This document shows, piece after piece, positions 1,716 to 21,998 of a DNA stretch of 27,208 nt. The position numbers and the translations under genes were made by a program. Below the pieces are notes generated by a model. The model had not been told where the DNA came from. It worked only from the letters and a program-made list of their open reading frames with translations, and did no database searches. This stretch comes from an uncultured archaeon. GTDB lineage: Archaea > Asgardarchaeota > Lokiarchaeia > Sigyniarchaeales > SOKP01. Every line of letters starts with the position of its first letter. The first letter of the stretch is position 1. The stretch is taken from positions 1 to 27,208 of the forward strand of contig CAZBPC010000041.1 in NCBI GenBank assembly GCA_964493715.1, in the 5' to 3' direction.

Positions 1716-2828
1716 TCAGGTATAAATATATTCCTTAATGGAATGCTCCTCATCTAAGAATTCAACAATAGATTTCTCAAATAATTCTTGAGTTACTTCC
1801 GTCTTTCCTTCTCTGAGACCAAGCATTCCTGATTCCGTACATAAAGCCTTTAATTGAGCTCCGCTAAAACCATCAGTTTTTTTCGCAATGATATTCAAGT
1901 CCACCCCTTTTAAATTCATCCTTCGAGTGTGAATCTTAAGTATCATTAATCTCGCAACTTCATTAGGTAAATTAAATCTGATTATTCGATCGAAACGACC
2001 CGGTCTTAATATTGCTGGATCTAGTACGTCTTCTCGATTTGTTGCTGCTAAAAACATTATCCCTTCCGTGTTCGCAAAACCATCTAATTCACTCAATAAT
2101 TGCATGAAAGTTCGTTGTACTTCTCTATCACCTTTATACACATCATCCGTTCGCTTAACAGCTATCGCATCGATCTCATCTATGAAAATGATTGCTGGAA
2201 TGTTCTCCTTGGCTAAAACAAAAACCTCTCGAACCATTCGAGAACCCTCTCCAATAAACTTCTGAACTAAATCAGATCCTACAAGATGAATGAATCTAGC
2301 ATGAGTAGAATTAGCAATGGCTTTTGCTAATAAAGTCTTACCTGTTCCAGGAGGTCCAGAAAGAAGAGCTCCCGAAGGAGGATCGATACCGATCTTCTCA
2401 AAGAGATCCGGATGTAGTAAAGGTAATTCAATAACTTCTCGTATGGCTTGGATCTGGTCATCTAATCCCCCTATATCTTCAAAAGTCTCAATAGGCATCT
2501 CGATCAATTCCATTGATGCAACTCTCCCCCTAATCTTCCGGGAAAGAATTTCTATTATCTGAAAAGTTTGACCGTGTAATGTCACAGAGTCACCTGCAAC
2601 TGGGGCAATCAATGAACTTGCAGGAAGTAATACCCGATTACCTGGAGAGTGTGAGACAACGATTCTCCCATCATTCAAAATTCTCTCAACGGAACCAATT
2701 ATAAGAGGTTTTGCTTTCAAATTTTCAACATATTGCTTATAAGACTCAATCTCTTGCTTGAGAACTCTATTCTCTTTCTCCAAAATACTGATTCTTTTCT
2801 GAACTGCCTTAATATCTGTCTCTGCCAT
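1716..2828 (-). CDS. pan: Proteasome-activating nucleotidase (AAA+ ATPase)
   Basis: N-terminal coiled coil and OB region, DIGGL..QI..IREVIELPL.HP, Walker A GPPGTGKT, pore loop KFIGEG, Walker B IIFIDEID, SRH DPAILRPGRFDR, C-terminal HbYX (IYT). Confidence 0.95.
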   Translation of the reverse strand: MAETDIKAVQKRISILEKENRVLKQEIESYKQYVENLKAKPLIIGSVERILNDGRIVVSHSPGNRVLLPASSLIAPVAGDSVTLHGQTFQIIEILSRKIRGRVASMELIEMPIETFEDIGGLDDQIQAIREVIELPLLHPDLFEKIGIDPPSGALLSGPPGTGKTLLAKAIANSTHARFIHLVGSDLVQKFIGEGSRMVREVFVLAKENIPAIIFIDEIDAIAVKRTDDVYKGDREVQRTFMQLLSELDGFANTEGIMFLAATNREDVLDPAILRPGRFDRIIRFNLPNEVARLMILKIHTRRMNLKGVDLNIIAKKTDGFSGAQLKALCTESGMLGLREGKTEVTQELFEKSIVEFLDEEHSIKEYIYT

Positions 2829-3197: not shown

Positions 3198-4343
3198 ATG
3201 GCAGAAGAAGAATCTTTTTTAAATGCCAAAGCCTTGGTTGTTGATAATGGTACTGGTATCTCTAAAAATGGTTTCGCTGGTGAAGATCAACCTCGATCAG
3301 TGTTCCCAACTCTCATTGGATACCCAAAATATGAGTCCATAATGACAGATGTCGAACATTATACTCGAGAATATTATATCGGTGAAGAAGCAATGCAACT
3401 CAAGGGTGTCTTAAAATTAATGTTCCCTGTAGAACATGGTATCATCGAAGATTGGACAGCAATGGAAAAAATCTGGCACTATACTTTCTACACCGACTTA
3501 AGAATCGACCCAAGTGAACATCCCGTTCTATTAACTGAAGCTCCATTAAATCCAAGACCCAATCGGGAAAAAATGGCTGAAATTATGTTTGAAACTTTCA
3601 ACGTTCCCGCGCTATATGTTGCAATGCAAGCAGTCTTGTCTCTATATGCTTCTGGGCGTACAACTGGATGCGTTATAGATATTGGAGATGGTGTTTCTCA
3701 CGTCGTACCTATCTTTGAAGGTTTTGCATTAAGCCACGCGATCCAAAGAATAGACCTCGCTGGGCGAGATATCACCACATATTTACAAAGATTACTCCGA
3801 CAAAAAGGCTATTCATTCACAACCTCAGCAGAAAAAGAGATTGTGAGAGATATAAAGGAGAAGCTATGCTATTGTGCCATAGACCCAGAAAAAGAAATGA
3901 TGTTGAGCAAAAAAGTCGCTGGAATGGAGAAAAGTTATATGCTTCCTGACGGTGAGACCATTAATGTCGGTGTAGAACGATTTTTAGCACCTGAATGCTT
4001 CTTTAACCCATCTGTAATAGGGAAAGAATTAGAACCTTTAGATGATGTTATTGTTGGAGCCATTTCAGAGTGTGATGTTGATTTACGCCGAGATCTTTAT
4101 AGCAACATCGTGCTTTCTGGCGGGTCTACCATGTTCCCAGGAATTAAAGAACGCTTGACTAAGGAGATAAAAGAACAGATTCCAGAATCTGTTGATGTTA
4201 AAATCATTGCACCTCCAGAACGTATGTACTCCGTATGGATTGGCGGGTCAATCTTAAGCTCCTTAAAGACTTTCCACCGAATGTGGGTTACGCGTAGGGA
4301 ATATAAAGAGATGGGGCCTCAGGTTATTCACCGCTGCTTCTAA
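3198..4343 (+). CDS. Asgard actin (lokiactin-type)
   Basis: [104 protein letters not shown]-terminal HRCF; collinear with eukaryotic actin. Confidence 0.97.
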
Positions 4344-4565: not shown

Positions 4566-5687
4566 TCAATCCAATTTTTCTCGTTCTTTTAGAGCTTTTG
4601 CATATCTTTCGTATTTTCTTTTTCCAAAACTAATTACCTTAGCTAACATCTCTGATTTTTTGATGGAAGTGTTAAATTTATTTAGTTCTTTTATGTATCC
4701 TTCTTTTAAAGCATTAGTGTAAATTTCATTACCAATTTTAGTCCTTATCAACGTAGTGGTGAATCCATCTTGAGACCCTAAACCTCCAAATGATATATCT
4801 GCATAAACGTTGGAAAAGTCTCGGCATGCATAACATGCTGCTCTAGTAATCCTTCCCAAATCATTAAAATCGATGTGAATAGATTTCTGATTTTGAAGGG
4901 TTAATATCAAATCTTCTTTTATATTCATGCTTTCGACTTCGTTGAATGAGAAGTTGAATTTTTCTTCCAATTCTTTTCTTCCTTCAATATTGAAGGAAAA
5001 ATTTAAATTACAAAATAGTCCTAAAGTATATTTTATTATATGTGCTGGTAAAATACTCAATTCTTGCATTTTCCTAATAGACATGATTTGGCAAGGTGTC
5101 CCGACGACCGCAATGTTCATCATATCCGAGCTGACGACTTTTTTTAATTTAGTTATTGTTGGAATGAAAGTATTATAGTTTTCTAAACCAACAACGCCTT
5201 GAGATAAATCAAAATGAGATCCTGCGGCTTCAATTAATTCTTCTTTAGTAGTTGCAAAGAAGGGTACCCGATTAAATGGTCCCTCCTTTTTAGAAACTAT
5301 TGCCCCATTTATTAAATTATGATCTAATAAATAACTGAGAATGGCAGTAACGCCACCTCCATCAGTCGCATTTTCTAAAATTTCTTTCGAATTAGCTTGA
5401 ATCGATGTAATTTTCATCCAATTACCTATGGAAACTTTATATGCGTATTTTTCATTTAACTCCTTATCTAACACGTGAGTTTGGGGGCAAATTAAATAAC
5501 AAATTCCACATTTTAAGCAATTATCCTTATTATAATATCTTGGAGGACCAGATTCAGACATCTCGATTGCTTTTATCTCGTGGGCTGAGCAAAAACTCAC
5601 GCATCCTCCACATTCTCCACAGATTCCAAGTTCGTGAACGTCTTTTATCAAATCCTCAAAAGATTTTGGCATTAACTCTTCAACCAT
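4566..5687 (-). CDS. FrhB/FpoF-family coenzyme F420 oxidoreductase beta subunit with N-terminal 2x[4Fe-4S] ferredoxin
   Basis: CGECGGCVSFC and CLKCGICYLICP; TDGGGVTAIL, AAGS, AVVGTPCQI, GLFC, CYAC.DF...ADISFGGLGS motifs of the FrhB family. Confidence 0.9.
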   Translation of the reverse strand: MVEELMPKSFEDLIKDVHELGICGECGGCVSFCSAHEIKAIEMSESGPPRYYNKDNCLKCGICYLICPQTHVLDKELNEKYAYKVSIGNWMKITSIQANSKEILENATDGGGVTAILSYLLDHNLINGAIVSKKEGPFNRVPFFATTKEELIEAAGSHFDLSQGVVGLENYNTFIPTITKLKKVVSSDMMNIAVVGTPCQIMSIRKMQELSILPAHIIKYTLGLFCNLNFSFNIEGRKELEEKFNFSFNEVESMNIKEDLILTLQNQKSIHIDFNDLGRITRAACYACRDFSNVYADISFGGLGSQDGFTTTLIRTKIGNEIYTNALKEGYIKELNKFNTSIKKSEMLAKVISFGKRKYERYAKALKEREKLD

Positions 5688-8642: not shown

Positions 8643-9095
8643 TCACCATTTTTTTTCAAATTTTTTATTCGGACCCAATTCTTTAACGATACGAGTGGCT
8701 TTCCTAACTAACATAGCAAAACGTTCCCCTTCTGCAGCAGAAGCCCACATAAAATTAACTCTTCCCGGTTCGATACCGAAGAACTGTAATAATTCATTTA
8801 ATATAGCAAACCTTCTTCGAGCAACTAAATTCCCAGTCAGATAATGACAATCACCGGGGTGACAACCTGATATTAACACTCCATCCCATCCATCTGTTAA
8901 ACTTTTAATAATAAAGTAAGGATTAACTCTGCCAGAACATGGAACCCGGACGATCCTTATATTTGGAGGATATTGAATTCTACTAACACCAGCAAGGTCA
9001 GCACCCGCATAACTACACCAATTACACAAGAATGCAATAATTTTAGGCTTCCATTCTTCACTTTTAGAATTTGACTCTTCTGTTTGTATTGTCAT
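8643..9095 (-). CDS. mvhD: MvhD/FlxD [2Fe-2S] subunit
   Basis: FLCNWCSYAGADLAG, RVPCSGRV, GCHPGDCHY, WASAAEGERF. Confidence 0.95.
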   Translation of the reverse strand: MTIQTEESNSKSEEWKPKIIAFLCNWCSYAGADLAGVSRIQYPPNIRIVRVPCSGRVNPYFIIKSLTDGWDGVLISGCHPGDCHYLTGNLVARRRFAILNELLQFFGIEPGRVNFMWASAAEGERFAMLVRKATRIVKELGPNKKFEKKW

Positions 9096-9097
9096 TT

Positions 9098-12000
9098 TTA
9101 GATCCTCCCAGTTATCATTTCAAATATTTGTCCACCTGTAAAGCCTAGTATATCTATTGCAGAGCACCGACAATTTCCGGAACATGCGCCACATCCTTTA
9201 CATAAAGCTTGATTAATAGATGCTACTGTGCCGAATCTTCTATCTTCAATTAATTCAATGGCATTATATGCACAATTTTCAATACACATTCCGCAACCAA
9301 TACAACGTGTTATATCAATTCTAGCTGTTTTTCCTTCTGCTTCAATTTCTTCTTTAGAAAGGATTGTACAAGCTCTTGAAACAGCTGCATTTGCTTGAGA
9401 TATGGAATCTTCTATGGTTTTAGGGCAATGTGCCGTTCCCGCTACAAAAACACCCTCCGTTGCAAAATCAACAGGTCTTAACTTTACGTGTGCTTCTAAG
9501 AAGAAGTTATCATCATTTAAAGGTACTTTAAGCATTTTTGCTAATTCCTCTTTCTCTTCTCGATCTGAATATATTCCCGCACTTAAAACTAACCAATCAG
9601 CATGAATGTATAATTTATCATGCCTTGGAGTATGAATTTCCACTTTTAGATCAGGACTGATCTTAGGAGGATCATTCTCGTCATATTGAATAAATATAAC
9701 TCCTAATTCTCTGGCTTTGCGATAATATTGTTCTTTAAACCCATAAGTTCTAATATCTCGAAATAAAACTGTTACTTCTAAGGCAGGATTCAACTCTTTA
9801 GCCAATATGGCATTTTTTATCGCTTCAGCACAACACATTTTACTACAGTATGGGTGTTCATCGTTTCTTGATCCAACACATTGGATCATTACAACAGATT
9901 TTTTATTTTTGATTTGATCCGTCTCATTTAGAATTCTTTCAAATTCAGATTGAAGGATAACATTTTTATTTTGCCCAAAAAGAAATTCTTTTGGTTGATA
10001 TTCCTTAGCTCCAGTAGCAACAACCACAACTCCATGAGTGAATTCTGCTCTTTCTTTATTTTCTCCATAAATAACTGAAGATTTAAAATTGCCTATATAT
10101 CCATCTATATTTTCAATTTGAGCTTCAGTAAATACATGAATATTTTTATGTGTTTTAACCTTATTAATTAATTCCTTATAATAAGCTTGAATGTCTGCTC
10201 CTTCAAGGGTGTGGTAAATATGTTTTGCAAAACCTCCCAACTCCTTTTCTTTTTCCACAAGGTATGTTTCATATTCTTGACTTGCGAAATTTAGTGCTGC
10301 AACCATTCCACTAATCCCCCCTCCTATTACAAGAGTTTTGGGAGTCACACTTAACTTGATTCTATCGATTGGTTCTATTTGTCTAGCTTTATTAACAGCC
10401 ATGCGAACAAGGTCCTTTGCCTTCTCTGTGGCAGCTTCCCAATCATTCATGTGGACCCAAGAGCATTGATCCCGAATATTTGCCATTTGGAAAAGGTATC
10501 TATTTAATCCTGCCTCTCTAATCGTCTCTTGAAACAATGGTTCATGTGTTCTAGGAGTACAAGACGCGACAATAACTCTATTTAAATTATACTCTTGAAC
10601 TTTTTCCTTTATAATAGTTTGGGTATCAGCAGAACATGTATATAGGTTTCGGTCTGACATCACTACATTAGGCAAGGTTTTTGCATATCTTGTAACTTCT
10701 GGTACATCTAAAAAACCTCCAATATTTATACCACAATGACAAATAAAGACACCTATCCTAGGTGGTTGGCCACTTACAAAGATTTCGGGAGGTAAAGTTT
10801 TTTCAGTTATTAAAGTCCCTTTTTTCTCATAAAGAAGTTGGTTTACACATCCAGCAGCTGCACTGGCTTGTGTTACCGTGTCGGGGATGTCTTTTGGAGA
10901 AGAAAATGCACCACAAACAAATATTCCTGGTCTTGTAGTTTGGACTGGATTAAACAGATCTGTTTTTGCAAAATCGTACTGATTTAATTCCACTCCAAAT
11001 TTATCAGCAAGATTTTTTGCATCATTAGGAGGATTTAATCCTACAGCAAGTACGACCATATGAAAATCTTCTTCAATTATTTTTCCATCTTGGGTTTCAT
11101 ATTTCAATCTTAAATCTTTCGTTTCGGGTACTTCCTTTATTGATGAAACTCTGCTTCTGATATATTTAACTCCATATTGTTCCCGAGCACGTATAATATA
11201 TTTATCAAAATCTTTACCATAAGCTCTAACATCCATGCTAAAAATTGTAGGTTTTATTTGATGCATGTGTTCATGAGCGATTACAGCCTCTTTTGCTGTA
11301 TACATGCAGCAGACTGAGGAACAGTAAGGCTTCCCCACTCCCGAATTATCCCGAGAACCTATACATTGCAAAAATGCCACTTTTTCAGGAATATCCCCAT
11401 CTGAAGGTCTAAGAACTCTTCCAGAGTATGGACCACTCGCACTTAAAATTCTTTCAAATTCAATACTAGTAACAACATTTTTATATTTACCATAACCGTA
11501 GAGATTCGCTTCCTTGGGGACATATTCATCAAAACCGGGTGATAAAACTATTGCTCCCACATTTATATCCACAATTTCATCTTCCCGATCATACTCCACT
11601 GCTTTAGCTTTACACACACCATAGCATATTCCACAACCAATACAAGCATCTCTATTAATTGCGTAGAGTAAGGGTACTGCCTGTGGATACTTTACTGAGG
11701 TTGCCCCATATTTAGCTAACTTTTCATTAAATAAATCGATTGCTTCAATTGGACATTCACGACCGCAAACTCCGCATCCTGTACATTTTTTCGGGTTAAT
11801 AAATAACGATTTCTTTCTCACCTTGACGGTAAAATTACCTGCTTCACCACTAACATTCTCTATTATACAATTAATGCTCAAATCAATATTTTGGTGACGA
11901 CCTGTTTCAACTAATTTAGGTGAAACAATACACATGGCGCAATCATTAGTCGGGAAAGTTTTATCGAGTTGAGCCATCACTCCTCCAATACTAGTGGAAG

Positions 12001-12103
12001 ACTCAATCAAATATACTTTATAACCCGAATCTGCTAAATCTAGGGAAGCTTGCGACCCTCCTATTCCCGCTCCTACAATCATTACAGCTCCGACTTTATC
12101 CAT
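9098..12103 (-). CDS. hdrA: Large heterodisulfide reductase subunit A-like protein (two FAD-domain repeats, 1001 aa)
   Basis: GAGIGG, KTFPTNDCAMC, inserted ferredoxin, QCIGSR, YCSSVCC, central GVFICHCG/CTPRTHE/NIRDQCSWVH domain, second GGGISG, EAHVKLRPVDF, C-terminal ferredoxin. Confidence 0.95.
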   Translation of the reverse strand: MDKVGAVMIVGAGIGGSQASLDLADSGYKVYLIESSTSIGGVMAQLDKTFPTNDCAMCIVSPKLVETGRHQNIDLSINCIIENVSGEAGNFTVKVRKKSLFINPKKCTGCGVCGRECPIEAIDLFNEKLAKYGATSVKYPQAVPLLYAINRDACIGCGICYGVCKAKAVEYDREDEIVDINVGAIVLSPGFDEYVPKEANLYGYGKYKNVVTSIEFERILSASGPYSGRVLRPSDGDIPEKVAFLQCIGSRDNSGVGKPYCSSVCCMYTAKEAVIAHEHMHQIKPTIFSMDVRAYGKDFDKYIIRAREQYGVKYIRSRVSSIKEVPETKDLRLKYETQDGKIIEEDFHMVVLAVGLNPPNDAKNLADKFGVELNQYDFAKTDLFNPVQTTRPGIFVCGAFSSPKDIPDTVTQASAAAGCVNQLLYEKKGTLITEKTLPPEIFVSGQPPRIGVFICHCGINIGGFLDVPEVTRYAKTLPNVVMSDRNLYTCSADTQTIIKEKVQEYNLNRVIVASCTPRTHEPLFQETIREAGLNRYLFQMANIRDQCSWVHMNDWEAATEKAKDLVRMAVNKARQIEPIDRIKLSVTPKTLVIGGGISGMVAALNFASQEYETYLVEKEKELGGFAKHIYHTLEGADIQAYYKELINKVKTHKNIHVFTEAQIENIDGYIGNFKSSVIYGENKERAEFTHGVVVVATGAKEYQPKEFLFGQNKNVILQSEFERILNETDQIKNKKSVVMIQCVGSRNDEHPYCSKMCCAEAIKNAILAKELNPALEVTVLFRDIRTYGFKEQYYRKARELGVIFIQYDENDPPKISPDLKVEIHTPRHDKLYIHADWLVLSAGIYSDREEKEELAKMLKVPLNDDNFFLEAHVKLRPVDFATEGVFVAGTAHCPKTIEDSISQANAAVSRACTILSKEEIEAEGKTARIDITRCIGCGMCIENCAYNAIELIEDRRFGTVASINQALCKGCGACSGNCRCSAIDILGFTGGQIFEMITGRI

Positions 12104-12115
12104 TATTCTCTCCTC

Positions 12116-12877
12116 TCACATCTTCATATAAATTGGTGTATTTTTAATAATTTCTTGAAAGTCAACCTGAGCACGACTTTTTAAAATCAACATATGTTCT
12201 AGAATTATACTTGGATCAATTTTCAGTTCAGAACCTAAGGCTTTTACCGATTTTGATTCATCTTCTAAAGCAATTAGTATTCGATGGCGATCGAATTCTT
12301 CTTTTATGGCTTGAGACATTATTTCCTTATATTTTTTTAAAGGGTATTTTTCACCATAGACATTCTCTTCCTCAGTAATTTTCCTTTCTCTACCTACCAA
12401 AGCTCGCATTCTATTACTCCCCGCTGCTAACTTAATAGCTCTTACTTTATTAATTAATTCCTTATCAGGAGAATCTCCACCTAGAGGCGATGGTCCTAAT
12501 TTTTTGATATCATTCACGAATTTAGATACAACATTTCCATATCTCACGCCTTCAGAAGCGGAAACCCAATCTAATCTAATTCTATTATCAAGACCTACAA
12601 GTTTAAGGAATTCTTGAGTCATTTCAAACTTCATTACGGCTTCATAATTTCCTTCAAGATAATGACAATCTCCGAGATGGCATCCCATGACATAAACTCC
12701 ATCAATTCCTAACTCGAGAGCTTGAATAATAAACTTAGGATCAATTCGACCACTACACATTACTCTTATTACTCTCATGTTTGGAGGATATTGAATTCTA
12801 CTGACTCCTGCCAAATCAGCTCCTGCATAAGAACACCAATTACACAAAAATCCTAATAATTTCGGTTCAAAACTCAT
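12116..12877 (-). CDS. mvhD: MvhD-like subunit with C-terminal helical/wHTH-like extension
   Basis: FLCNWCSYAGAD, MCSGRI, GCHLGDCHY, WVSASEG, then about 120 extra aa. Start moved to ATG 12877 after GGAGGGA. Confidence 0.9.
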   Translation of the reverse strand: MSFEPKLLGFLCNWCSYAGADLAGVSRIQYPPNMRVIRVMCSGRIDPKFIIQALELGIDGVYVMGCHLGDCHYLEGNYEAVMKFEMTQEFLKLVGLDNRIRLDWVSASEGVRYGNVVSKFVNDIKKLGPSPLGGDSPDKELINKVRAIKLAAGSNRMRALVGRERKITEEENVYGEKYPLKKYKEIMSQAIKEEFDRHRILIALEDESKSVKALGSELKIDPSIILEHMLILKSRAQVDFQEIIKNTPIYMKM

Positions 12878-12878
12878 T

Positions 12879-14567
12879 TTATTTCCCTCCATATGCAAGT
12901 ATTTCAGACATTATTTGATCATCGGTAAAATGCCTTATCACTATTGCTTGATTCGTGCATGTAGCTCCACAAACTCCACATCCTTTACAAAGCGCTTCGA
13001 TTATCTCGATTTCATCATCTTCATTTTTAATTATTGCATGAAATGGACACACTTTTATACATATTTCACAACCAGTACATAATTTTTTATTATATACTGG
13101 TAAATTTGAAGTGGACCCTTCTACTTCAATAGTATTATGAGAAAGAATAGTACTCGCTCGGGAGGCTGCTGAATATCCCTGTGCTATAGATTCAGTGATA
13201 TCTACGGGCCATTTTGCAGATCCCCCAATAAATACGCCATCTGTGGCGAAATCACTTGGTCTTAATTTTACGTGTGCTTCAAGAAAGAAATTATTACTCT
13301 CTGTTGGCACTTTTAGCATCTGAGCAAGATCCTTATTATCTGAATTTGCAACTAAAGGGGTCGATAACACTAAAAGATCATAAGGGATGAGCATTTCTTC
13401 TCCCATATATTCATTATAGACTCTAATATGGTTTTCTTCAACAATCGGATTTCTATCCTCATCATATCTAATAAAAAGAATACCTTCTTCTCGAGCCTTT
13501 CTATAATATTCTTCATATTCTGTTCCAGGAGTATATAAATCTCTAAAAAGTATAGAAATGTGCGTTTCTGGACTTTTTTCTTTAATAATTAAGGCATTTT
13601 TGAGAGCCGTCATGCAACAAACACTGGAGCAATAGGGTCTTTTATCGTTCCGAGAACCAGCACATTGAATCATTACCACTTCTTTGGCTTTGATTTGCTT
13701 ATTCTTCAGTTTTGGCTCCAATTCATATTGAGTAATGATTTTTTGTCCATCATACTTAAATAATCCTTGTGGATCGAGGATTGAAGAACCAACAGCTACA
13801 ATAATAATCCCTACCTTTAGGTTCACATCCTTACCATTTTGGAGAAGCTCTATTTCGTAGTTACCTACAAATCCGTCGATATTTGTGATCTTTGTTGATA
13901 ATAAAATTTCTAGATTTGGAGAATTATTGAGATTTGTAATGAGCTTATCTAAAAGAACGGATGCTTCAATATCATATGGAAATAGCTTATATAAATTATT
14001 TAATCTCCCACCTAAACGATCATCTCTTTCTACTAAATAAGTTTTAAATCCTTGCCGGCTTAAATTAAGTGCGGCACTCATACCAGTGACTCCTCCACCA
14101 ATAACTAGACCAATAGGATTTATATCTAATTTTATCATATCCAAAGGTTTAAGCTTTTCCGCTTTCGCTACACCCATTTTAACTAAATCTGCAGCTTTAG
14201 CATAGGCACCCTCTGGATCCTTCATGTGAACCCAAGTGCATTGGTCCCTAATATTAACGAAATTAAACAAGTAGGGATTCAAGCCAGCTTCAGAAATACA
14301 TTCCCGAAATAAAGGTTCATGAGTTCGTGGAGTACATGACGCCACAACTACGCGATTTAGATTATTTTCTTTAATAGCAGTCTTGATAGCTGTTAATCCA
14401 GTTTCAGAGCACGTATATAAATTATCCTCACTATGAGCAACACCATGTAACGTACCTGCATACTCAGCTAAGCCCTTACAGTCAATTAATCCTCCAATAT
14501 TAGAACCACAATGACATATAAAGACTCCTACTCTAACATCTTCTTCCTTTTTTTCTTCTTCAACCAT
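12879..14567 (-). CDS. hdrA: HdrA-like protein, C-terminal half of a split large HdrA
   Basis: VGVFICHCG, CTPRTHEPLF, NIRDQCTWVH, GGGVTG, QCAGSR, YCSSVCC, EAHVKLRP, C-terminal ferredoxin. Start moved to ATG 14567 (MVEEEKK). Confidence 0.92.
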   Translation of the reverse strand: MVEEEKKEEDVRVGVFICHCGSNIGGLIDCKGLAEYAGTLHGVAHSEDNLYTCSETGLTAIKTAIKENNLNRVVVASCTPRTHEPLFRECISEAGLNPYLFNFVNIRDQCTWVHMKDPEGAYAKAADLVKMGVAKAEKLKPLDMIKLDINPIGLVIGGGVTGMSAALNLSRQGFKTYLVERDDRLGGRLNNLYKLFPYDIEASVLLDKLITNLNNSPNLEILLSTKITNIDGFVGNYEIELLQNGKDVNLKVGIIIVAVGSSILDPQGLFKYDGQKIITQYELEPKLKNKQIKAKEVVMIQCAGSRNDKRPYCSSVCCMTALKNALIIKEKSPETHISILFRDLYTPGTEYEEYYRKAREEGILFIRYDEDRNPIVEENHIRVYNEYMGEEMLIPYDLLVLSTPLVANSDNKDLAQMLKVPTESNNFFLEAHVKLRPSDFATDGVFIGGSAKWPVDITESIAQGYSAASRASTILSHNTIEVEGSTSNLPVYNKKLCTGCEICIKVCPFHAIIKNEDDEIEIIEALCKGCGVCGATCTNQAIVIRHFTDDQIMSEILAYGGK

Positions 14568-14574
14568 TATAATT

Positions 14575-15882
14575 CTACACTCCTCTAATAACTTCTGCTG
14601 CTCTTGCTGCTGCTCCACTTGCTTCAGCTACAGAACGCGGAATATCCATAGGTTCATGAACACATCCACATGTGAAAATTCCATTTTTACTCGTTTCTAC
14701 TGGTATAAATGGGGTTGTTTTTATGAAATTGTAATCATTTAATTCAATATCTAAAATTTCAGCTAAATTCTCAATTCCATCAGGTGGAATTATACATGTA
14801 GCCAAAACTACAAGATCAACCTGAATTTGTTTAATTTTACCATCTTCATAATCCTCATATACAATAATCGGATTTTCATCTTTATCAATATCAATTTGAG
14901 CAATCTTGCTTTTAATATAATTGATATTATAATCTGAGGCTCCTCTACGAAGGAAAGATTGAAATCCTTTTCCACCCGCTCTCATATCAATATAAAATAC
15001 ATAAGACTCCAGACTATTATCATGTTCATAAGCAATCATAGCCTCTTTCGTGGTGTACATGCAACATATTGAAGAGCAATATTTCTCAAATCGATCTGAA
15101 CGAGAACCTATGCATTGCAAAAATGCTATCTTTTTTGGGGTTTCTCCATCCGAAAATCGTTTAATATGACCACCTTGAGGTCCAGAAGCACATTCCATTC
15201 GTTCAAATTCTAATGCAGTAACTACATTTCTGAATTTACCATAACCATAACTATTTAATGCTTCAGTCTCAATATCTTCAACTAAATTATATCCCGTGGC
15301 AACCACTATAGAACCAACATTATTCAAGGTAATTGTTTGGTCTTGTTGTTCAAAATCAATCGCATCTCTTTCACATGTTTTTTCACATATCCTACAAGCA
15401 TTTTTAGTAAACCATAAGCATTTTTCTTTATCAATCGTCATGACTGCAGGGACTCCTTGAAGATAATACATGTAAATTGCCCTTCGCTTTCTTATTTCAC
15501 GATCAAATTCATCTTCAACCCTCATTGGACATTTTTCAGTACACAATCCACAATTAATGCATTCACTCTCTTTAACGTATCGAGCATGTTTTAAAATCTC
15601 AACTGAGAAATTTCCTGCTGAACCTTTCACCTTTTGAACTTCTGAATATGAATGGAGTGTAATATTAGGATGTCTGAAGCATTCAGATAATTTTGGCGCT
15701 AAGATGCATATTGAACAGTCATTTGTTGGAAAAGTCTTATCTAATTGTGCCATTTTTCCACCAATACACGGTTTTTTTTCCACCATATCAACATGTATTC
15801 CCATACCTGCTAAATCCAATGCTGCTTGAATTCCTGCAATCCCCCCACCAATAACTAAGGCAGTCTTTGAATTTTTCTCCAA
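14575..15882 (-). CDS. hdrA: HdrA-like protein, N-terminal half of a split large HdrA
   Basis: GGGIAG, KTFPTNDCSICILAP, ferredoxin CINCGLCTEKCP, QCIGSR, YCSSICC, PMDIP.SV..AS.AA; TTG start, TAG stop. Confidence 0.92.
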   Translation of the reverse strand: MEKNSKTALVIGGGIAGIQAALDLAGMGIHVDMVEKKPCIGGKMAQLDKTFPTNDCSICILAPKLSECFRHPNITLHSYSEVQKVKGSAGNFSVEILKHARYVKESECINCGLCTEKCPMRVEDEFDREIRKRRAIYMYYLQGVPAVMTIDKEKCLWFTKNACRICEKTCERDAIDFEQQDQTITLNNVGSIVVATGYNLVEDIETEALNSYGYGKFRNVVTALEFERMECASGPQGGHIKRFSDGETPKKIAFLQCIGSRSDRFEKYCSSICCMYTTKEAMIAYEHDNSLESYVFYIDMRAGGKGFQSFLRRGASDYNINYIKSKIAQIDIDKDENPIIVYEDYEDGKIKQIQVDLVVLATCIIPPDGIENLAEILDIELNDYNFIKTTPFIPVETSKNGIFTCGCVHEPMDIPRSVAEASGAAARAAEVIRGV

Positions 15883-15934: not shown

Positions 15935-16810
15935 TTAAACATCAAATCCTATACTTTCGAATAATTCGCTTGGTTTAATGCGATGAAAGTTAAATCCTAA
16001 TTCTTCTGGTTTAAACCCAAATGACAAAGCTATCAGTTCTGATAAGTAAAAGATCGGAATATTGTATTCTGAATTATTCTTCTTATTAAGTTCTTTTTGA
16101 TTATACTCAAATTGCTGATAACAAGCAGGACATACAACAACAACACAGTTTGCACCAGCTTCTTGAATTGCTTTCAATTTGTTGTCTATCATTTGCAGAG
16201 ATAAATCTTTATCTGATTTTTCAAGAGGATTTCCGCAACACTCCATTTTTTGCTCATAATCTACGGATTCCGCCTGCAATGCCTTCACGATTTCATCCAA
16301 TGTCACTGGTTCAAAGGGATCGTCCCATTTAATAATCTCCGAAGGTCTTAAATAATGGCAACCGTAATGAACCGCAACCTTAAATCCTTCCAAGGGTTTT
16401 TCTAAATTTTTTTTTACTTTATCTAAGTTTTCATAAAGGACTTGAGCAAAGTGTTTTACCTCAGTTTTACCCTCATATGCCTTTCCAATCTTTTTTAAAT
16501 GTTTATTAACTTGTTCTTTTGCGTTTACATCCTTATTAATAAAATAATTAACACCTTTCAATGTTTCAACGCATCCAGAACAGAAAGATACGACTCCTCC
16601 ATTATTATCACACAAACTTAAATTCCTTGCACCCAAAGTTAACCATGTTTCGTGGTCAATTAGCTCAATCCCAGTAGGATCAGGACAACAACTAAATCCG
16701 TCAACATCTCGTAATTCTATACCAAGCTTTTCAAAAATTTTTCTTGAAGACACCTCTAAATAAGGTAATCTTGCTGGAATAACACAACCTAAAAATAAAT
16801 CGTACGCCAT
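15935..16810 (-). CDS. hdrB: Heterodisulfide reductase subunit B
   Basis: FLGCVIP, SCCP, CSGC, VAVHYGCH.LRP, CCG, CPAC..QF (two CCG domains). Confidence 0.96.
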   Translation of the reverse strand: MAYDLFLGCVIPARLPYLEVSSRKIFEKLGIELRDVDGFSCCPDPTGIELIDHETWLTLGARNLSLCDNNGGVVSFCSGCVETLKGVNYFINKDVNAKEQVNKHLKKIGKAYEGKTEVKHFAQVLYENLDKVKKNLEKPLEGFKVAVHYGCHYLRPSEIIKWDDPFEPVTLDEIVKALQAESVDYEQKMECCGNPLEKSDKDLSLQMIDNKLKAIQEAGANCVVVVCPACYQQFEYNQKELNKKNNSEYNIPIFYLSELIALSFGFKPEELGFNFHRIKPSELFESIGFDV

Positions 16811-16811
16811 T

Positions 16812-17309
16812 TTATTCTGTCCCCCTCAAGATGTTTTTGTCAAAATTTGTCTCATTCAGTAATACTTGAATCTCTTCCACTGAAGCGACTTTAATCTTGG
16901 GAAGACCTAGTTTTTTGCGTCTCGCAATGATTGAATTTGAATAAGGAATAGCAACTCCATTATCAAACACTGCTTTACCCTGGGAGTAAAATGCTTCAGG
17001 AAATTTCTGCTCTTCAAAACATAAATTCTTTACCAAAGTAAATATCTCCGTCAATTCAACCTTTTGAGGACACAACTCAACACATTTTTGACAAGTCGAA
17101 CATAGCCAGGGATTAGGATCCTGACTCTCAATTAATTTATCCTTTAACCCTAATATTGCTTCTTCAATTATTTTCCTAGGATTATACTTACCCTCAGTAA
17201 GTAAAGCCACGGGACATCCACCAGAACAAGTTGAACATTGGTAACAATAACTCAAGGATGCATTATGCTTGAGCACTTCATTCCTAAACTCGTAATTTAT
17301 TACACTCAT
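16812..17309 (-). CDS. hdrC: Heterodisulfide reductase subunit C
   Basis: CYQCSTCSGGCP, NPRKII, WLCSTCQKCVELCP, RKKLGLP; directly upstream of hdrB. Confidence 0.95.
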   Translation of the reverse strand: MSVINYEFRNEVLKHNASLSYCYQCSTCSGGCPVALLTEGKYNPRKIIEEAILGLKDKLIESQDPNPWLCSTCQKCVELCPQKVELTEIFTLVKNLCFEEQKFPEAFYSQGKAVFDNGVAIPYSNSIIARRKKLGLPKIKVASVEEIQVLLNETNFDKNILRGTE

Positions 17310-17583
17310 TATAATTATCCTAATTTTTTTTCATTAATTTGAAGGAAATCTTTTTACATTATTGTCGTGTTATCAAAAGCATTTTTTTCCTTAAATTTCT
17401 TAAATATAACACACTTTTAAATTTTTTATAAAATTTCGAAATAATTTTCATCTTTATGAAATAAATATATCACAATGATATCTCTAATTTCAATTATCCA
17501 CAATTTTCCAGATTATGAACTATCAAATTAAAGATATATAGCTGAATTTCTCTCCCTAATTTCATTTAATATATTAAATTGCT

Positions 17584-17871
17584 CTATTTCGAATCTAATT
17601 GTTTTTGAATATCAATCACAATTGGGATTTCGCTATCTTTTTTTCTTATTACCACTTTCAATAAGCCATCCTCAATCGTGGTGCTAATCGGATGGAACTG
17701 ATCAGCCTCTTCAATCTCTCCCTCCGCATTAACATTTTCAGGTTTTGCTTTCGTTTTCAGGCAGGTATGATGTTCATCATATAACACGCACTTTGAACAA
17801 CAGAACCCAACAGGCATGTATCCTACGATGGAACAACGATCGTAAGCATCACAATTGCAACTATTACACAT
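17584..17871 (-). CDS. Cys-rich small protein, paralog 3 (95 aa)
   Basis: MCNSCNCDAYDRCSIVG...FCCSKC..Y.....C; shares motif with the two upstream ORFs. Confidence 0.85.
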   Translation of the reverse strand: MCNSCNCDAYDRCSIVGYMPVGFCCSKCVLYDEHHTCLKTKAKPENVNAEGEIEEADQFHPISTTIEDGLLKVVIRKKDSEIPIVIDIQKQLDSK

Positions 17872-17876
17872 GAGAA

Positions 17877-18116
17877 TTACCTCTTGTTTATAATTAGAGT
17901 GACTTCTTCACTTTTCTCTTCAGTTTTATTTTCCATATTTGCAGTAACATGGATATGCTGTTTTGGATCCAATTTCGAAATGTCCAACTGATAATGCTCA
18001 CAAGAATGCCTTAATTCATAACCCACACATTGATCACAACAAAAATGAATGGGCATGCAACCTACTATCGAACATCTATCATACATATCATTACTACATT
18101 GACAATGATTACACAT
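17877..18116 (-). CDS. Cys-rich small protein, paralog 2 (79 aa)
   Basis: MCNHCQC..MYDRCSIVG...FCCDQC..Y.....C. Start moved to ATG 18116 from paralog alignment and the GAGGTG SD. Confidence 0.85.
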   Translation of the reverse strand: MCNHCQCSNDMYDRCSIVGCMPIHFCCDQCVGYELRHSCEHYQLDISKLDPKQHIHVTANMENKTEEKSEEVTLIINKR

Positions 18117-18132
18117 GATTTTCACCTCTTTT

Positions 18133-18315
18133 TTACGCATTCAAGACCTCAAGATGTGCAGTAAGAGCAGGATTAACTCTTTTTACACGCACTTGCGATC
18201 GAATGCAATCAAGTGATTCGTTATAGAGCTCACATCTTGGACAACAAAATCCTATAGAAACACATCCTACTATAGAACATCGATCAAGATTATCACACGA
18301 GCAAGAATTACACAT
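18133..18315 (-). CDS. Cys-rich small protein, paralog 1 (60 aa)
   Basis: MCNSCSCDNLDRCSIVG...FCCPRC..Y.....C. Confidence 0.85.
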   Translation of the reverse strand: MCNSCSCDNLDRCSIVGCVSIGFCCPRCELYNESLDCIRSQVRVKRVNPALTAHLEVLNA

Positions 18316-18324
18316 TTTTTATTT

Positions 18325-18378
18325 TCACTTTGGGTATTTTTTTTTTGGTTTTGTGGGAAATAGTTCACACTTTACCAT
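18325..18378 (-). CDS. Putative 17-aa leader uORF MVKCELFPTKPKKKYPK
   Basis: ATG 24 nt downstream of a TATA box (leaderless geometry); TGA stop ends just before the first Cys-rich ORF. Confidence 0.35.
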   Translation of the reverse strand: MVKCELFPTKPKKKYPK

Positions 18379-18401
18379 TATGATCAATTAGCTTAATCTA
18401 G

Positions 18402-18422
18402 TATATAAATATTTACCTTTTT
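18402..18422 (-). promoter_or_regulatory. Putative BRE-TATA promoter of the Cys-rich cluster
   Basis: Minus strand AAAAAGGTAAATA-TTTATATA. Confidence 0.55.
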
Positions 18423-18815
18423 CATCATTATCGCCGCAAAAATTATCATCTTCAAATGATATGTATGATAATGTCAAGCATATTGATCATATTTTAGATA
18501 TTCGCATATCGATCTACGATGAATGTTTGAAAATCTCAAACCATGCGAAAAATAATTATTGAAGAACGTAAAACCGACATTTATGAGAAAATTCGTCGAC
18601 AAATATGCATAATTCGTGAAAGTGGTGATCCATTTTTGGAGGAAAAAACGAAATGTGACAATTTAGTGACGTGAATGATCTAAAAATCCATCTACAATGT
18701 TGATAAAAAATCGCAGGATGGGATTTAGCGAATATATCTAATGTTAGCATAGAAAAAAAAGAATGAATGATGCGTAAGTTGATTAATAGCTATTTCTAAA
18801 TATTCTTGAAAAACA

Positions 18816-18983
18816 TTAGTAAATCCCATAATATTCGTCAAGTTCTCGAAGAAGTGCAATATCTTCAGGATCAGTAGTATCTATTCCCGCTTGGGATAAT
18901 GTTTCGCCAAGATATTCGGCATCAAACGTTGCAATTGTTTTGTGGTAAGTTTACCGAATAAAATCTTTTGTTTTTTCATCCAT
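18816..18983 (-). pseudogene. 55-codon acidic ORF interrupted by in-frame TAA
   Basis: MDEKTKDFIR*TYHKTIATFDAEYLGETLSQAGIDTTDPEDIALLRELDEYYGIY; TAA at 18951-18953. Confidence 0.5.
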
Positions 18984-19068
18984 TTTTTTATACTCTGATA
19001 TATTTTAATCAAAGAATAGAAAGAAATCCTATTTATACAATATGTATAAAATTATTAAAAAAACTAGT

Positions 19069-20031
19069 CTATATTTTATCTATCAATTCAAACAAGACAG
19101 AGAGTACCTCTTCGGCATCGCCCGAAAATTTAAACACGCCTTCAACGAGTTCTCCCTCGACTCCTTCCGCAACCAGTTCATAGATGATATTTTCGGCAAA
19201 TTGCTCTGATTTATTTAATGCGAGCGCGAATTTGTTTATGGGGATGCCTTTCTGAAGTTTTATTAAACCCGTAATTCTCCTTTTAATCCTTTCTTTATCT
19301 ACCGAAGACTCTCCTGAAGATGCTTTAACTTTAACTTTGTTCCCGAGATCCGAAATCCCTGATTCTTCCACCGCTTTTTCAATGTTATCTCCCCATTTTT
19401 CCATTTTTTTCCCAAATTCTTCCAAAGTTCGAAGATCTCCGATGTTATTCTTAACAAATTTCATCGATTTACGTACCAATTCGGAAACAGAAGAACCTAA
19501 ATCATCCGACCATTCCCTCCATTCTTCACTCGTGTCAGGAGGAACCGAAATATTTATGCGAGTTACCTTATCTTTTGCTTTTCTTTCCTTATATTCTTGC
19601 CTTTTAGCCCTTGCACGAGCCTTTCTTTCTTTTTCCCTGAATTTTTCCGCTAATTCTGCCCGCCTTTCTCTCAGATCTTCCTTCCTTTCTCTCAAATCTT
19701 CCCGAGATTCTTCCCGTAACTCTCGAATTTCCTCCAAGAGATCCAGCCTTTCCTCTTTCTTTTCATCAACCATCTCTCTTAAATCTTCAGAAGGATCATC
19801 TTCTAGTTCTCTTAAGTCTTCTGCAATCTCACTTTCAAGTTCTTGTAATTCCTTTTCCTTTTCTCGTATCTTTTCCTCGAATCCAGTTGTCTTTTCTTGT
19901 ATAGATTTCTCCCTATCCTTAATTTCTCTAATGAAATTTTCTCTGAGTTGTTTAATTTCATCAAGCTCGTCAAAATCATCCTTTTTTAAAGTCTTATCTT
20001 TTTCCTGATCCTCTTTCTCTTCTTTTGACAT
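19069..20031 (-). CDS. Coiled-coil protein with central ribbon-helix-helix-like and C-terminal PCI/winged-helix-like domains
   Basis: E/K/R-rich N-terminal ~150 aa with EDLRE x4; TRINISVP...WREW...G.SVSELVRKSM (RHH pattern); IPINKFALALN.S...AENIIYELVAEG.VEG (WH pattern). Confidence 0.8.
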   Translation of the reverse strand: MSKEEKEDQEKDKTLKKDDFDELDEIKQLRENFIREIKDREKSIQEKTTGFEEKIREKEKELQELESEIAEDLRELEDDPSEDLREMVDEKKEERLDLLEEIRELREESREDLRERKEDLRERRAELAEKFREKERKARARAKRQEYKERKAKDKVTRINISVPPDTSEEWREWSDDLGSSVSELVRKSMKFVKNNIGDLRTLEEFGKKMEKWGDNIEKAVEESGISDLGNKVKVKASSGESSVDKERIKRRITGLIKLQKGIPINKFALALNKSEQFAENIIYELVAEGVEGELVEGVFKFSGDAEEVLSVLFELIDKI

Positions 20032-21320: not shown

Positions 21321-21998
21321 TTACGGTGCAATTAAAGGTGAAAGGTCTAAGATTTTTTGAACAATAATACGATAAATTTCTTCCACGTTTTCACCCGTCA
21401 GTGCAGAACATTCAATGTATCCACTAACATCCATTGATTTTGCCATACTTATTGCTTGTGTAGATTGAACTTGTCTATTTTCCTTCAAGTCTAACTTGTT
21501 TCCAATCAAAAATATCGGAAAAATCTCTGGATCGTCGACTTCATTCCATATTAATGAGACCCATGCTTCATAATTTGCCAATGAATATAAGTTAGAAATA
21601 TCAAAAAAAAGCAATCCTGCATGAGCACCCTTTGTATATGTAGAGTAAAATAAGTGAATTCTATCAATATCATTAAAACTCCAAATTTGCAGTTGGTATC
21701 TGTTTTGACCTAAAATGACAGATTTAGTATAAAATTCAATGCCAATTTTTTTATCTGCTTTACTTCGAGAAATTATCTTTTTTGTGCTATTTCTCAGGAA
21801 AGTTGCCTTTCCAGCTCCAGAATTTCCAAACACGATTAATTTAAACGTATCATCGTATCCTGTTTTAACGACATTTTTTTTTATAGGATCAACAACCTTT
21901 TTCTCTGCAATAAAAGTTGCTGTGAAGGTATTGATATCAATATCCTCTGGTATCGTTCTTAAATGCCTTTTTTTCTTCCATTTTTTATAAGGTTCCAT
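21321..21998 (-). CDS. Rab/Ras-like small GTPase with degenerate G1-G3 motifs
   Basis: FKLIVFGNSGAGKAT, IGIEF, LQIWS, YTKGAHAGLLFFDI, LIGNKLDL...RQV, YIECSALTGENVEE. Confidence 0.88.
   Translation of the reverse strand: MEPYKKWKKKRHLRTIPEDIDINTFTATFIAEKKVVDPIKKNVVKTGYDDTFKLIVFGNSGAGKATFLRNSTKKIISRSKADKKIGIEFYTKSVILGQNRYQLQIWSFNDIDRIHLFYSTYTKGAHAGLLFFDISNLYSLANYEAWVSLIWNEVDDPEIFPIFLIGNKLDLKENRQVQSTQAISMAKSMDVSGYIECSALTGENVEEIYRIIVQKILDLSPLIAP

Follow-up and report, generated by a model that had tools for sequence, protein, structure and literature searches.

What three very small cysteine-rich proteins, encoded in tandem immediately upstream of a heterodisulfide reductase (Hdr) gene cluster, may contribute to their host is the question raised by a locus of an uncultured archaeon of the class Lokiarchaeia, order Sigyniarchaeales. 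The stretch of DNA that was analysed, hereafter the window, comprises 27,208 nucleotides (nt) with a G+C content of about 33% (contig CAZBPC010000041.1 of assembly GCA_964493715.1, positions 1 to 27,208 of the forward strand). The three genes, here called A, B and C, lie on its minus strand and encode proteins of 60, 79 and 95 amino acids (aa), which share an N-terminal head of 37-39 residues with eight invariant Cys. So dense a set of Cys (eight in 37 residues), in proteins without an evident signal peptide, suggests a metal-binding role. Our preferred reading, to which we attach a probability of roughly 45%, is that the head would bind a metal or an iron-sulfur (Fe-S) centre and would sit on docking tails, acting as an accessory of the neighbouring Hdr-Flx complex in the role of carrier, acceptor or sensor.

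The alignment of the three proteins agrees with the original prediction, made from the bare sequence, which had described three close, co-oriented open reading frames (ORFs) of these lengths with a common eight-Cys N-terminus and conserved DRCSIVG, F and Y residues. In gene A numbering the invariant positions are M1, C2, N3, C5, C7, D8, D11, R12, C13, S14, I15, V16, G17, F23, C24, C25, C28, Y31 and C37; the Cys pattern reads C-x2-C-x-C-x5-C, ten residues, and CC-x2-C-x8-C, and genes A and B carry a ninth Cys in the sequence SIVGC. In the heads of relatives (sets of 42 and 86) six of the eight Cys are invariant and the other two nearly so. The exact spacing of the first four, C-x2-C-x-C-x5-C, occurs in 78/86 heads, genes A and C included, with x7 as the last interval in gene B; among the 9671 frames of at least 60 aa in the host's own genome this motif is found in genes A and C only. 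Likewise, a profile built from the three heads and run against the 3.68-Mb genome recovered genes A, B and C with E-values of 4e-23 to 9e-26 (gene A, 4.4e-23), and the sole other match, on contig C13 (E 0.0045), is interrupted by two internal stop codons. One start codon needs comment: gene B appears in the ORF list with an upstream ATG at 18140, giving 87 aa, and the alternative ATG at 18116 yields the 79-aa protein beginning with M-C-N-H-C. The latter is the likelier start, since a GAGGTGA ribosome-binding site sits between the two ATGs and every relative begins with M-C. With the listed start the ends of genes A and B overlap (gene A ends at 18133); between genes B and C there are 5 nt.

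Genes A, B and C are real and their head is under constraint. A related metagenome-assembled genome contains the same trio intact (locus L101), with identical lengths of 60, 79 and 95 aa; its gene A ortholog has 75% identity. The ratio of nonsynonymous to synonymous substitutions (dN/dS) against L101 is 0.37 for gene A, 0.20 for gene B and 0.13 for gene C, and by part it amounts to 0.06-0.26 for the heads and 0.23-0.54 for the tails (gene A: head 0.26, tail 0.54). Pooling of the C-type genes (n=26; 18 of the 325 pairs were unsaturated and thus usable) gave 0.15 for the head, 0.85 for the linker that follows it and 0.28 for the tail, and the purifying selection that had been proposed for the head is borne out by both sets of figures. 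Contigs from four metatranscriptome libraries, which at 88-98% identity come from relatives, cover all three genes, and one of them spans the B/C junction; they are a weak sign of expression, the pieces being short and such libraries being able to hold DNA. No piece falls on the spacer between gene C and hdrC or upstream of position 18330, and hdrC has one; being assembled contigs from runs chosen for this stretch, they are uninformative on operon structure.

The family had not been recognised in the original prediction, and the comparisons made here did not join it to a known one. Pfam and NCBIfam searches with the three proteins found no domain, and Pfam searches with 42 heads and with 60 and 38 full-length members gave sub-threshold noise only, except for the recurrent HSP20 matches described below. 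The head profile had no match among all PDB chain sequences at E ≤ 10, and Rfam found nothing in positions 16500-19500 of the window. A full-length profile run against PDB sequences picked up keratin (E 1.5) and MotS (E 6.1), both judged to be chance matches. In the ESM Atlas, the clusters scoring 0.93-0.95 were solely unannotated Promethearchaeota clusters, probably the family's own; the head alone had no usable match among named clusters, and a phage cluster at 0.80 was below the level to trust. AlphaFold models of 60 full-length sequences had a mean predicted local distance difference test score (pLDDT) of 55.9, with head and linker both below 50. Structural comparison of such models, which had been suggested together with Pfam-type searches, likewise found no known fold (Foldseek against PDB, best E 0.28; a wide VIA-align search, no Z ≥ 2), the models being too poor to speak on the fold. 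Kinship with the CCG domain of HdrB, with HdrC or with CxxCxxCC proteins (PF03692) was rejected (hhalign 0.2%, 0.1% and 1.6% for the head; no Fer4, CCG or CxxCxxCC match in Pfam). Because no curated family, PDB sequence or profile comparison matches it, the head is described here as a new sequence family, presumably metal-binding; as a domain family it is new and belongs to a general kind already known, namely small Cys-rich proteins of metal type and small partners of Hdr-like enzymes.

The family is small and young, and is confined to one taxonomic family of Lokiarchaeia. A search of a 5.8-billion-protein collection with gene C, counted at E ≤ 1, returned 117 proteins with E-values from 2.6e-54 to 6.5e-14, mostly of 85-96 aa and with 98-100% coverage of the query; those that bear a source name are called hypothetical proteins, except for one 'HSP20 family chaperone', and the sources label relatives as Promethearchaeota or Lokiarchaeota. 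Gene B had 10 close relatives with 65-97% identity. In whole genomes the head profile was found in 29/38 from the host's own family and in 0/160 from 26 other families of the phylum; extended to the whole order, it was present in 101 of the 132 genomes of the family, in 1/14 of one sister family and in 0/5 of two others. Matches never exceed three per genome, in the loci examined the copies stand in one locus, and genus g2 has a single head match in each of its 39 positive genomes. A 42-sequence head profile matched 70 of 1.84 billion cluster representatives at E ≤ 1e-3; 68/70 are 49-110 aa long and in 52/70 the head starts at residue 2. The claim of a new Asgard domain thus holds as regards novelty and the lack of a matching family, and fails as regards generality, the range being one family of one order. 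Full-text literature searches, which do not cover supplements, retrieved no paper on these proteins.

Gene C is the conserved core gene of the locus, made of a head, a nearly neutral linker and a conserved tail. Alignment of its relatives gives two conserved blocks and a K/E-rich segment of variable length, and the tail is conserved over its full length. AlphaFold predicts three strands (residues 59-67, 70-77 and 80-87) and a helix (88-92) in the tail with a pLDDT of ~76. When this tail was compared by hhalign with 27 small heat-shock proteins (sHSPs) from the genus, it matched with 84% and an E-value of 7.7e-6 over query columns 62-94 against columns 73-106 of 110, a region which corresponds to the last sHSP strands and the C-terminal I-x-I end; controls remained low (3.4% for reversed sHSP, ≤ 0.7% for 20 column shuffles, 8.3% for the best unrelated alignment). 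The Pfam HSP20 model (PF00011) hit 5/60 members with 12.8-15.3 bits against a cut-off of 20.8, four of the five on profile positions 70-92 of 102. The tail thus covers about a third of an alpha-crystallin domain, below the Pfam cut-off, and the N-terminal part of an sHSP is replaced by the Cys head; judged by these alignments, it resembles a fragment of the part used in sHSP assembly, not an alpha-crystallin domain. Excerpts of work on MjHSP16.5 state that the I-x-I motif is required for its oligomerisation (PMC3638399). A complex prediction of tail residues 52-95, with alignment, and residues 72-183 of the host's own sHSP, which comprise its alpha-crystallin domain and C-terminal region, scored 0.00 against a mark of 0.32, which gives no answer either way.

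The other tails are of several kinds. In the 70 representatives, regular expressions recognised at least 9 sHSP-like tails, 12 of an L-P-x2-F-C-L-K-like type with an extra Cys and 12 with an F/Y-P end, so that the original view of unrelated, variable tails applies to the family as a whole and not to the tail of gene C, which is a conserved module. In a tree of 44 copies the extra copies sit on branches of 1.2-3.6 against a median of 0.22, and gene B groups with the middle copy of locus L022 (support 100/96); genes A and B, the upstream copies, arose by tandem duplication, evolve faster and bear other tails. Two further members are worth recording: protein P0131, whose head is joined to a GerE/LuxR-type helix-turn-helix of which only the second half is present (E 2.5e-4; 21.1 bits, cut-off 23.5), and protein P0196, in which a hydrophobic tail resembles two membrane helices.

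The genes downstream of gene C, named by reading of their Pfam domains, make up a probable Hdr-Flx-type cluster, which continues on the same strand to about position 4566 with mvhD, two Fe-S proteins, an NAD/FAD protein and an FrhB-like protein. Its place on the same strand about 270 nt from the Cys genes had been noted from the sequence (the gap is 274 nt), and its synteny with them was followed here through 29 related loci, hdrCB being counted as adjacent within about 1.5 kb. It adjoins the Cys genes in 20/29 loci, co-directionally in 12 and divergently in 8; the remainder consists of four loci of genus g4 with no hdr nearby, two of genus g3 with none in the available flank and three that are cut by contig ends. 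Spacers between the gene and hdrC range from 42 to 578 nt overall, from 42 to 496 nt in co-directional loci, and are 42-102 nt in loci L011, L019 and L026. Co-transcription with hdr is not the rule, because 8/29 loci are divergent and one genus is unlinked. Since a single clade of the tree holds six of the eight divergent genes and the two others fall elsewhere, the gene was inverted more than once while it stood beside hdrC.

The same association emerges from whole genomes. A close hdrB ortholog (about 68% identity or more, classes being typed by hand from two tables) is present in 94 of 133 genomes of the family, and the head accompanies it in 89/94; in genomes lacking the ortholog the head is found in 13/39. 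In four of the five exceptions with hdrB and without head a contig end interrupts the locus; in the fifth, the 1.8 kb next to hdrC are free of the head. The association between head and hdr is tight; independent co-evolution is not what these counts show.

A second link to enzymes of this kind is provided by P0188, a 386-aa Fe-S flavoprotein of the FrhB family with Fer4, FrhB_N and FrhB_C domains. The head stands as an internal insertion between FrhB_N and FrhB_C, and the protein shares 28% identity (E 4e-40) with the product of the FrhB-like gene at the end of the window's cluster. A one-off assembly error is not the explanation, because the 90% cluster of P0188 comprises three members (JGI and NCBI; contigs of 17.8-18.4 kb). 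No relative of P0188 was seen in the metagenome scan, and 398 genomes of the phylum held no near-identical match. This insertion, the sHSP-like tail and the head-linker-tail build of gene C, the divergent and unlinked arrangements, the genome-wide cross-tabulation and the selection figures are new.

On these grounds the following mechanism may be proposed. The head would fold around a metal, most likely as an Fe-S protein or with two tetrathiolate metal sites, and the tails would be exchangeable modules for docking or assembly; within gene C, a flexible linker would tie the head to a beta-strand module like the C-terminal assembly end of sHSPs. The microproteins would be cytoplasmic and would dock on the electron-bifurcating hdrCB-hdrA-mvhD-flx complex, where they would serve as small redox carriers, acceptors or sensors. 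An Fe-S centre is suggested by the first four Cys, whose spacing equals that of the [2Fe-2S] motif of SoxR, CX2CXCX5C, for which excerpts of one source give Cys119, 122, 124 and 130 of Escherichia coli SoxR as the four ligands (PMC8063818). In SoxR this segment comes after a MerR-type DNA-binding domain and a dimerisation helix, whereas in the microproteins it begins at residue 2, and four further conserved Cys come after it.

Several observations weigh against this proposal. The likeness to SoxR consists of the four-Cys spacing only, with no match at E ≤ 10 in the PDB, which includes SoxR structures, and Pfam and NCBIfam found no MerR-type domain in the three proteins. AlphaFold models of the head alone (86 sequences) reached a pLDDT of 59.5 and showed no secondary structure; failed modelling would be expected of a metal-dependent fold but proves nothing. 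An in-frame TGA, which would mark a catalytic selenocysteine/Cys position, was found in none of the head matches of the genome searches. The gene often has its own promoter, as judged from the divergent orientation and the long spacers, and the co-occurrence counts are not independent of linkage, because neighbouring genes share losses and inheritance and the genomes compared are closely related. General synteny is also conserved, with the Lrp and Ras genes recurring as neighbours. Since orthologous Hdr-type clusters of sister families lack the head (1/19 genomes), it is not essential to Hdr-Flx in general. Finally, in genus g4 the Cys genes are not next to hdr, in genome G242 no hdr lies within 3 kb of them, and two genus g3 genomes have a tail-less 53-aa copy without a close hdrB ortholog. 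In one genome of genus g4, G144, both are nevertheless kept, an hdr cluster with 57-71% identity lying on another contig. A small, conserved protein rich in Cys whose gain, retention and loss go along with those of one Hdr-Flx cluster is a concrete and cheaply testable candidate partner; apart from Hdr, the head is an unclassified domain of metal type with a modular build and a natural insertion in an FrhB-family enzyme.

The alternative that fares best, which we hold to be unlikely, is that these are structural zinc microproteins, zinc-finger-like adaptors or regulators whose position near hdr is inherited synteny without functional meaning. The CxxC-type knuckles C2-x2-C5 and C25-x2-C28 would suit a zinc ribbon or a rubredoxin-like fold, the tails differ, with half of a helix-turn-helix in P0131 and a two-helix membrane anchor in P0196, and hdr is unlinked in genus g4 and G242 with the Lrp and Ras genes being conserved neighbours as well. 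Small cytoplasmic zinc-finger microproteins are familiar from haloarchaea, where CPxCG proteins of fewer than 100 aa with Cys knuckles are often of unknown function; the size and the knuckles are shared, while the eight Cys with a CC doublet, the one-family range and the link to hdr set the present proteins apart. The head profile also matches weakly (E 8.4e-4) the FCC-x2-C part of TRASH/YHS-type repeats in the planctomycete protein P0199. Domains of this type (PF04945, PF24273) have, like the head, a CxxC knuckle and later [FY]-C-[CS]-x2-C plus an aromatic residue, and the head has four extra Cys. The TRASH/YHS Cys motif is C-x2-C-x19-22-C-x3-C, and the corresponding reading of the head would be C2-x2-C5-x18-C24-x3-C28 (x20 in gene B), where x18 is near and outside that range. 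According to excerpts of one source, small metallochaperones and metal sensors of archaea are among the TRASH proteins (PMC7830388). However, neither the three proteins nor the 42 heads had a TRASH/YHS match in Pfam at E ≤ 10, and profile comparison was insignificant: a TRASH/YHS treble clef was rejected at 6.8% over 10 columns (hhalign, 25 local YHS domains from P-type ATPases and small proteins of relatives), and the repeats of P0199 gave 29% over 19 columns. Moreover, mere synteny accounts poorly for a head that is present in 89/94 genomes with the hdrB ortholog against 13/39 without, for an adjacency that outlasts at least two or three separate inversions of a small gene, and for the insertion of the head in a redox enzyme of the FrhB family. 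If the proteins were plain zinc microproteins after all, they would be a modest, family-restricted addition to the catalogue of archaeal small proteins.

An extended form of the docking proposal would make the microproteins the missing physiological partner of Lokiarchaeial Hdr-Flx, an Fe-S or thiol acceptor replacing the heterodisulfide of coenzymes M and B (CoM-S-S-CoB), with tails that route the head to docking sites, the sHSP-like module among them; we judge it improbable in so complete a form.

A little less probable still is that HdrB uses them as its protein thiol/disulfide substrate instead of CoM-S-S-CoB, by analogy with DsrC. DsrC, which carries two Cys on a C-terminal arm, is a small protein proposed as substrate of the bacterial FlxABCD-HdrABC, and the microproteins are likewise small Cys proteins genomically tied to a Flx-Hdr-type cluster in a host without CoM-S-S-CoB. 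Asgard archaea encode and strongly express Hdr-type electron-bifurcating complexes but are not known to carry out methanogenesis. Neither McrA nor DsrC was found in the host's genome, where the search controls responded, and excerpts of a study of these archaea call the Asgard Hdr substrate an 'unidentified heterodisulfide' (PMC11291895). The short distance of 42-102 nt from the gene to hdrC-hdrB in L011, L019 and L026 would suit this role, as would the first Cys, which is residue 2 in 52/70 representatives and would be terminal and accessible if Met were removed. On the other hand, two Cys suffice for a redox pair, and eight near-invariant Cys together with conserved Gly and aromatic residues look like a metal-dependent fold; the head is absent in sister families that have Hdr, and hdr is unlinked in genus g4; and Pfam and NCBIfam showed no similarity of genes A, B and C to DsrC (PF04358), the eight Cys of the microproteins being N-terminal.

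To the same low degree we credit a SoxR-like redox or metal sensor, whose tails would contact protein partners and so exert control over the hdr cluster or a stress response. The SoxR spacing of the first four Cys, a promoter of the gene's own with divergence from hdrCB in 8/29 loci, the richness of divergent spacers in GATC boxes and the partial GerE-type helix-turn-helix at the end of P0131 are consistent with a regulator. The three proteins of the window, however, are without any DNA-binding domain recognised by Pfam or NCBIfam, the GATC boxes are limited to closely related loci, and over the whole window TGATCA shows no enrichment (11 sites, with 12.6 expected).

The slimmest chance is given to gene C as an sHSP partner, whose tail would dock in the manner of an I-x-I anchor and bring a redox-sensitive Cys or metal head to the chaperone, a logic comparable to that of the zinc switch of Hsp33. 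The resemblance of the tail to an sHSP C-terminus, the role of the I-x-I end in MjHSP16.5 and the one member named as an HSP20 family chaperone are in favour of such a partnership. However, the match comprises ~33 columns, with Pfam scores below the cut-off, neither the window nor the related loci examined contain an sHSP gene, and the tail could equally be a self-association element. Precursors of ribosomally synthesised and post-translationally modified peptides were dropped, the conserved part being the Cys-rich N-terminus and no maturase-type gene being nearby.

Table 1. Positions of the Cys-rich genes, their parts and the adjoining hdr genes in the window.
Feature	Position	Strand	Description	Basis
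Gene A	18133..18315	-	60 aa; eight-Cys head plus ninth Cys (residues 1-37), short tail	ORF and translation
GAGGTGA ribosome-binding site	18122..18128	-	Ends 5 nt before the gene B ATG	Read from sequence
Gene B	17877..18116	-	79 aa; head with 2-residue insertion after third Cys, ninth Cys, own tail	ORF and translation
AGAGGT ribosome-binding site of gene C	17879..17884	-	Overlaps end of gene B	Read from sequence
Gene C	17584..17871	-	95-aa core member; head, variable charged linker, conserved C-terminal module	
Gene C head, residues 1-38	17758..17871	-	C-x2-C-x-C-x5-C ... CC-x2-C-x8-C	Alignments
Gene C linker, residues 39-58	17698..17757	-	K/E-rich; length and sequence vary	Alignment
Gene C tail, residues 59-95	17587..17697	-	Three predicted beta-strands and short helix; resembles sHSP end	
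Gene C-hdrC spacer	17310..17583	-	274 nt, AT-rich	Sequence
hdrC	16812..17309	-	4Fe-4S dicluster	Pfam
hdrB	15935..16810	-	Two CCG domains	Pfam
Split hdrA	12879-15882	-	435 + 579 aa; genes overlap by 44 nt in different frames	
mvhD-fusion gene	12116-12898	-		
Double hdrA	9098-12103	-	1001 aa; aligns to both hdrA halves	

Some observations around these loci deserve mention. The divergent spacers of L016, L018, L020, L021, L024 and L029 (576-578 nt, 21-23% G+C) contain 5-9 GATC at conserved positions, of which 2-4 are TGATCA; the GATC density in them is 8.7-15.6 per kb against 1.8-4.7 in the flanks, the loci being close kin, and an operator array or some other element is conceivable. The 85-aa C-type divergent genes of L018 (genome G159) and L024 (G071) form one clade (support 100/100) with those of L016, L020, L021 and L029, a clade that mixes genus g1 and g2 labels, which may reflect movement of the locus from one genus to another or a problem of labelling. 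As for the hdr genes, the hdrA split of the window recurs in the related locus L039, there with a 30-nt gap. The hdrB beside the Cys genes looks damaged in L011 (G193), where only residues 1-21 and 184-282 align, and in L109 (G247) its match runs in two frames, with a break near residue 188 and an internal TAG; both cases could reflect decay or an assembly error. In L034 of genus g4 (9074-9490, minus strand) the Cys genes, there unlinked from hdr, stand between the gene of an NADPH-dependent FMN reductase and a convergent gene for a putative Zn/Fe-chelating CxxCxxCC protein (PF03692), again a setting of redox and metal type.

Directly upstream of gene A, a 320-aa ORF rich in E, K and R (19069-20031, minus strand) has no Pfam match; tblastn found no counterpart of it in eight larger related loci, and it appears to be specific to the arrangement of its own genome. 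Elsewhere in the window there are eukaryote-like genes, which code for an actin (3198-4343, plus strand; 442 bits against Pfam Actin), a Ras-family GTPase (21321-21998, minus strand) and a proteasome-type AAA ATPase (1716-2828, minus strand).

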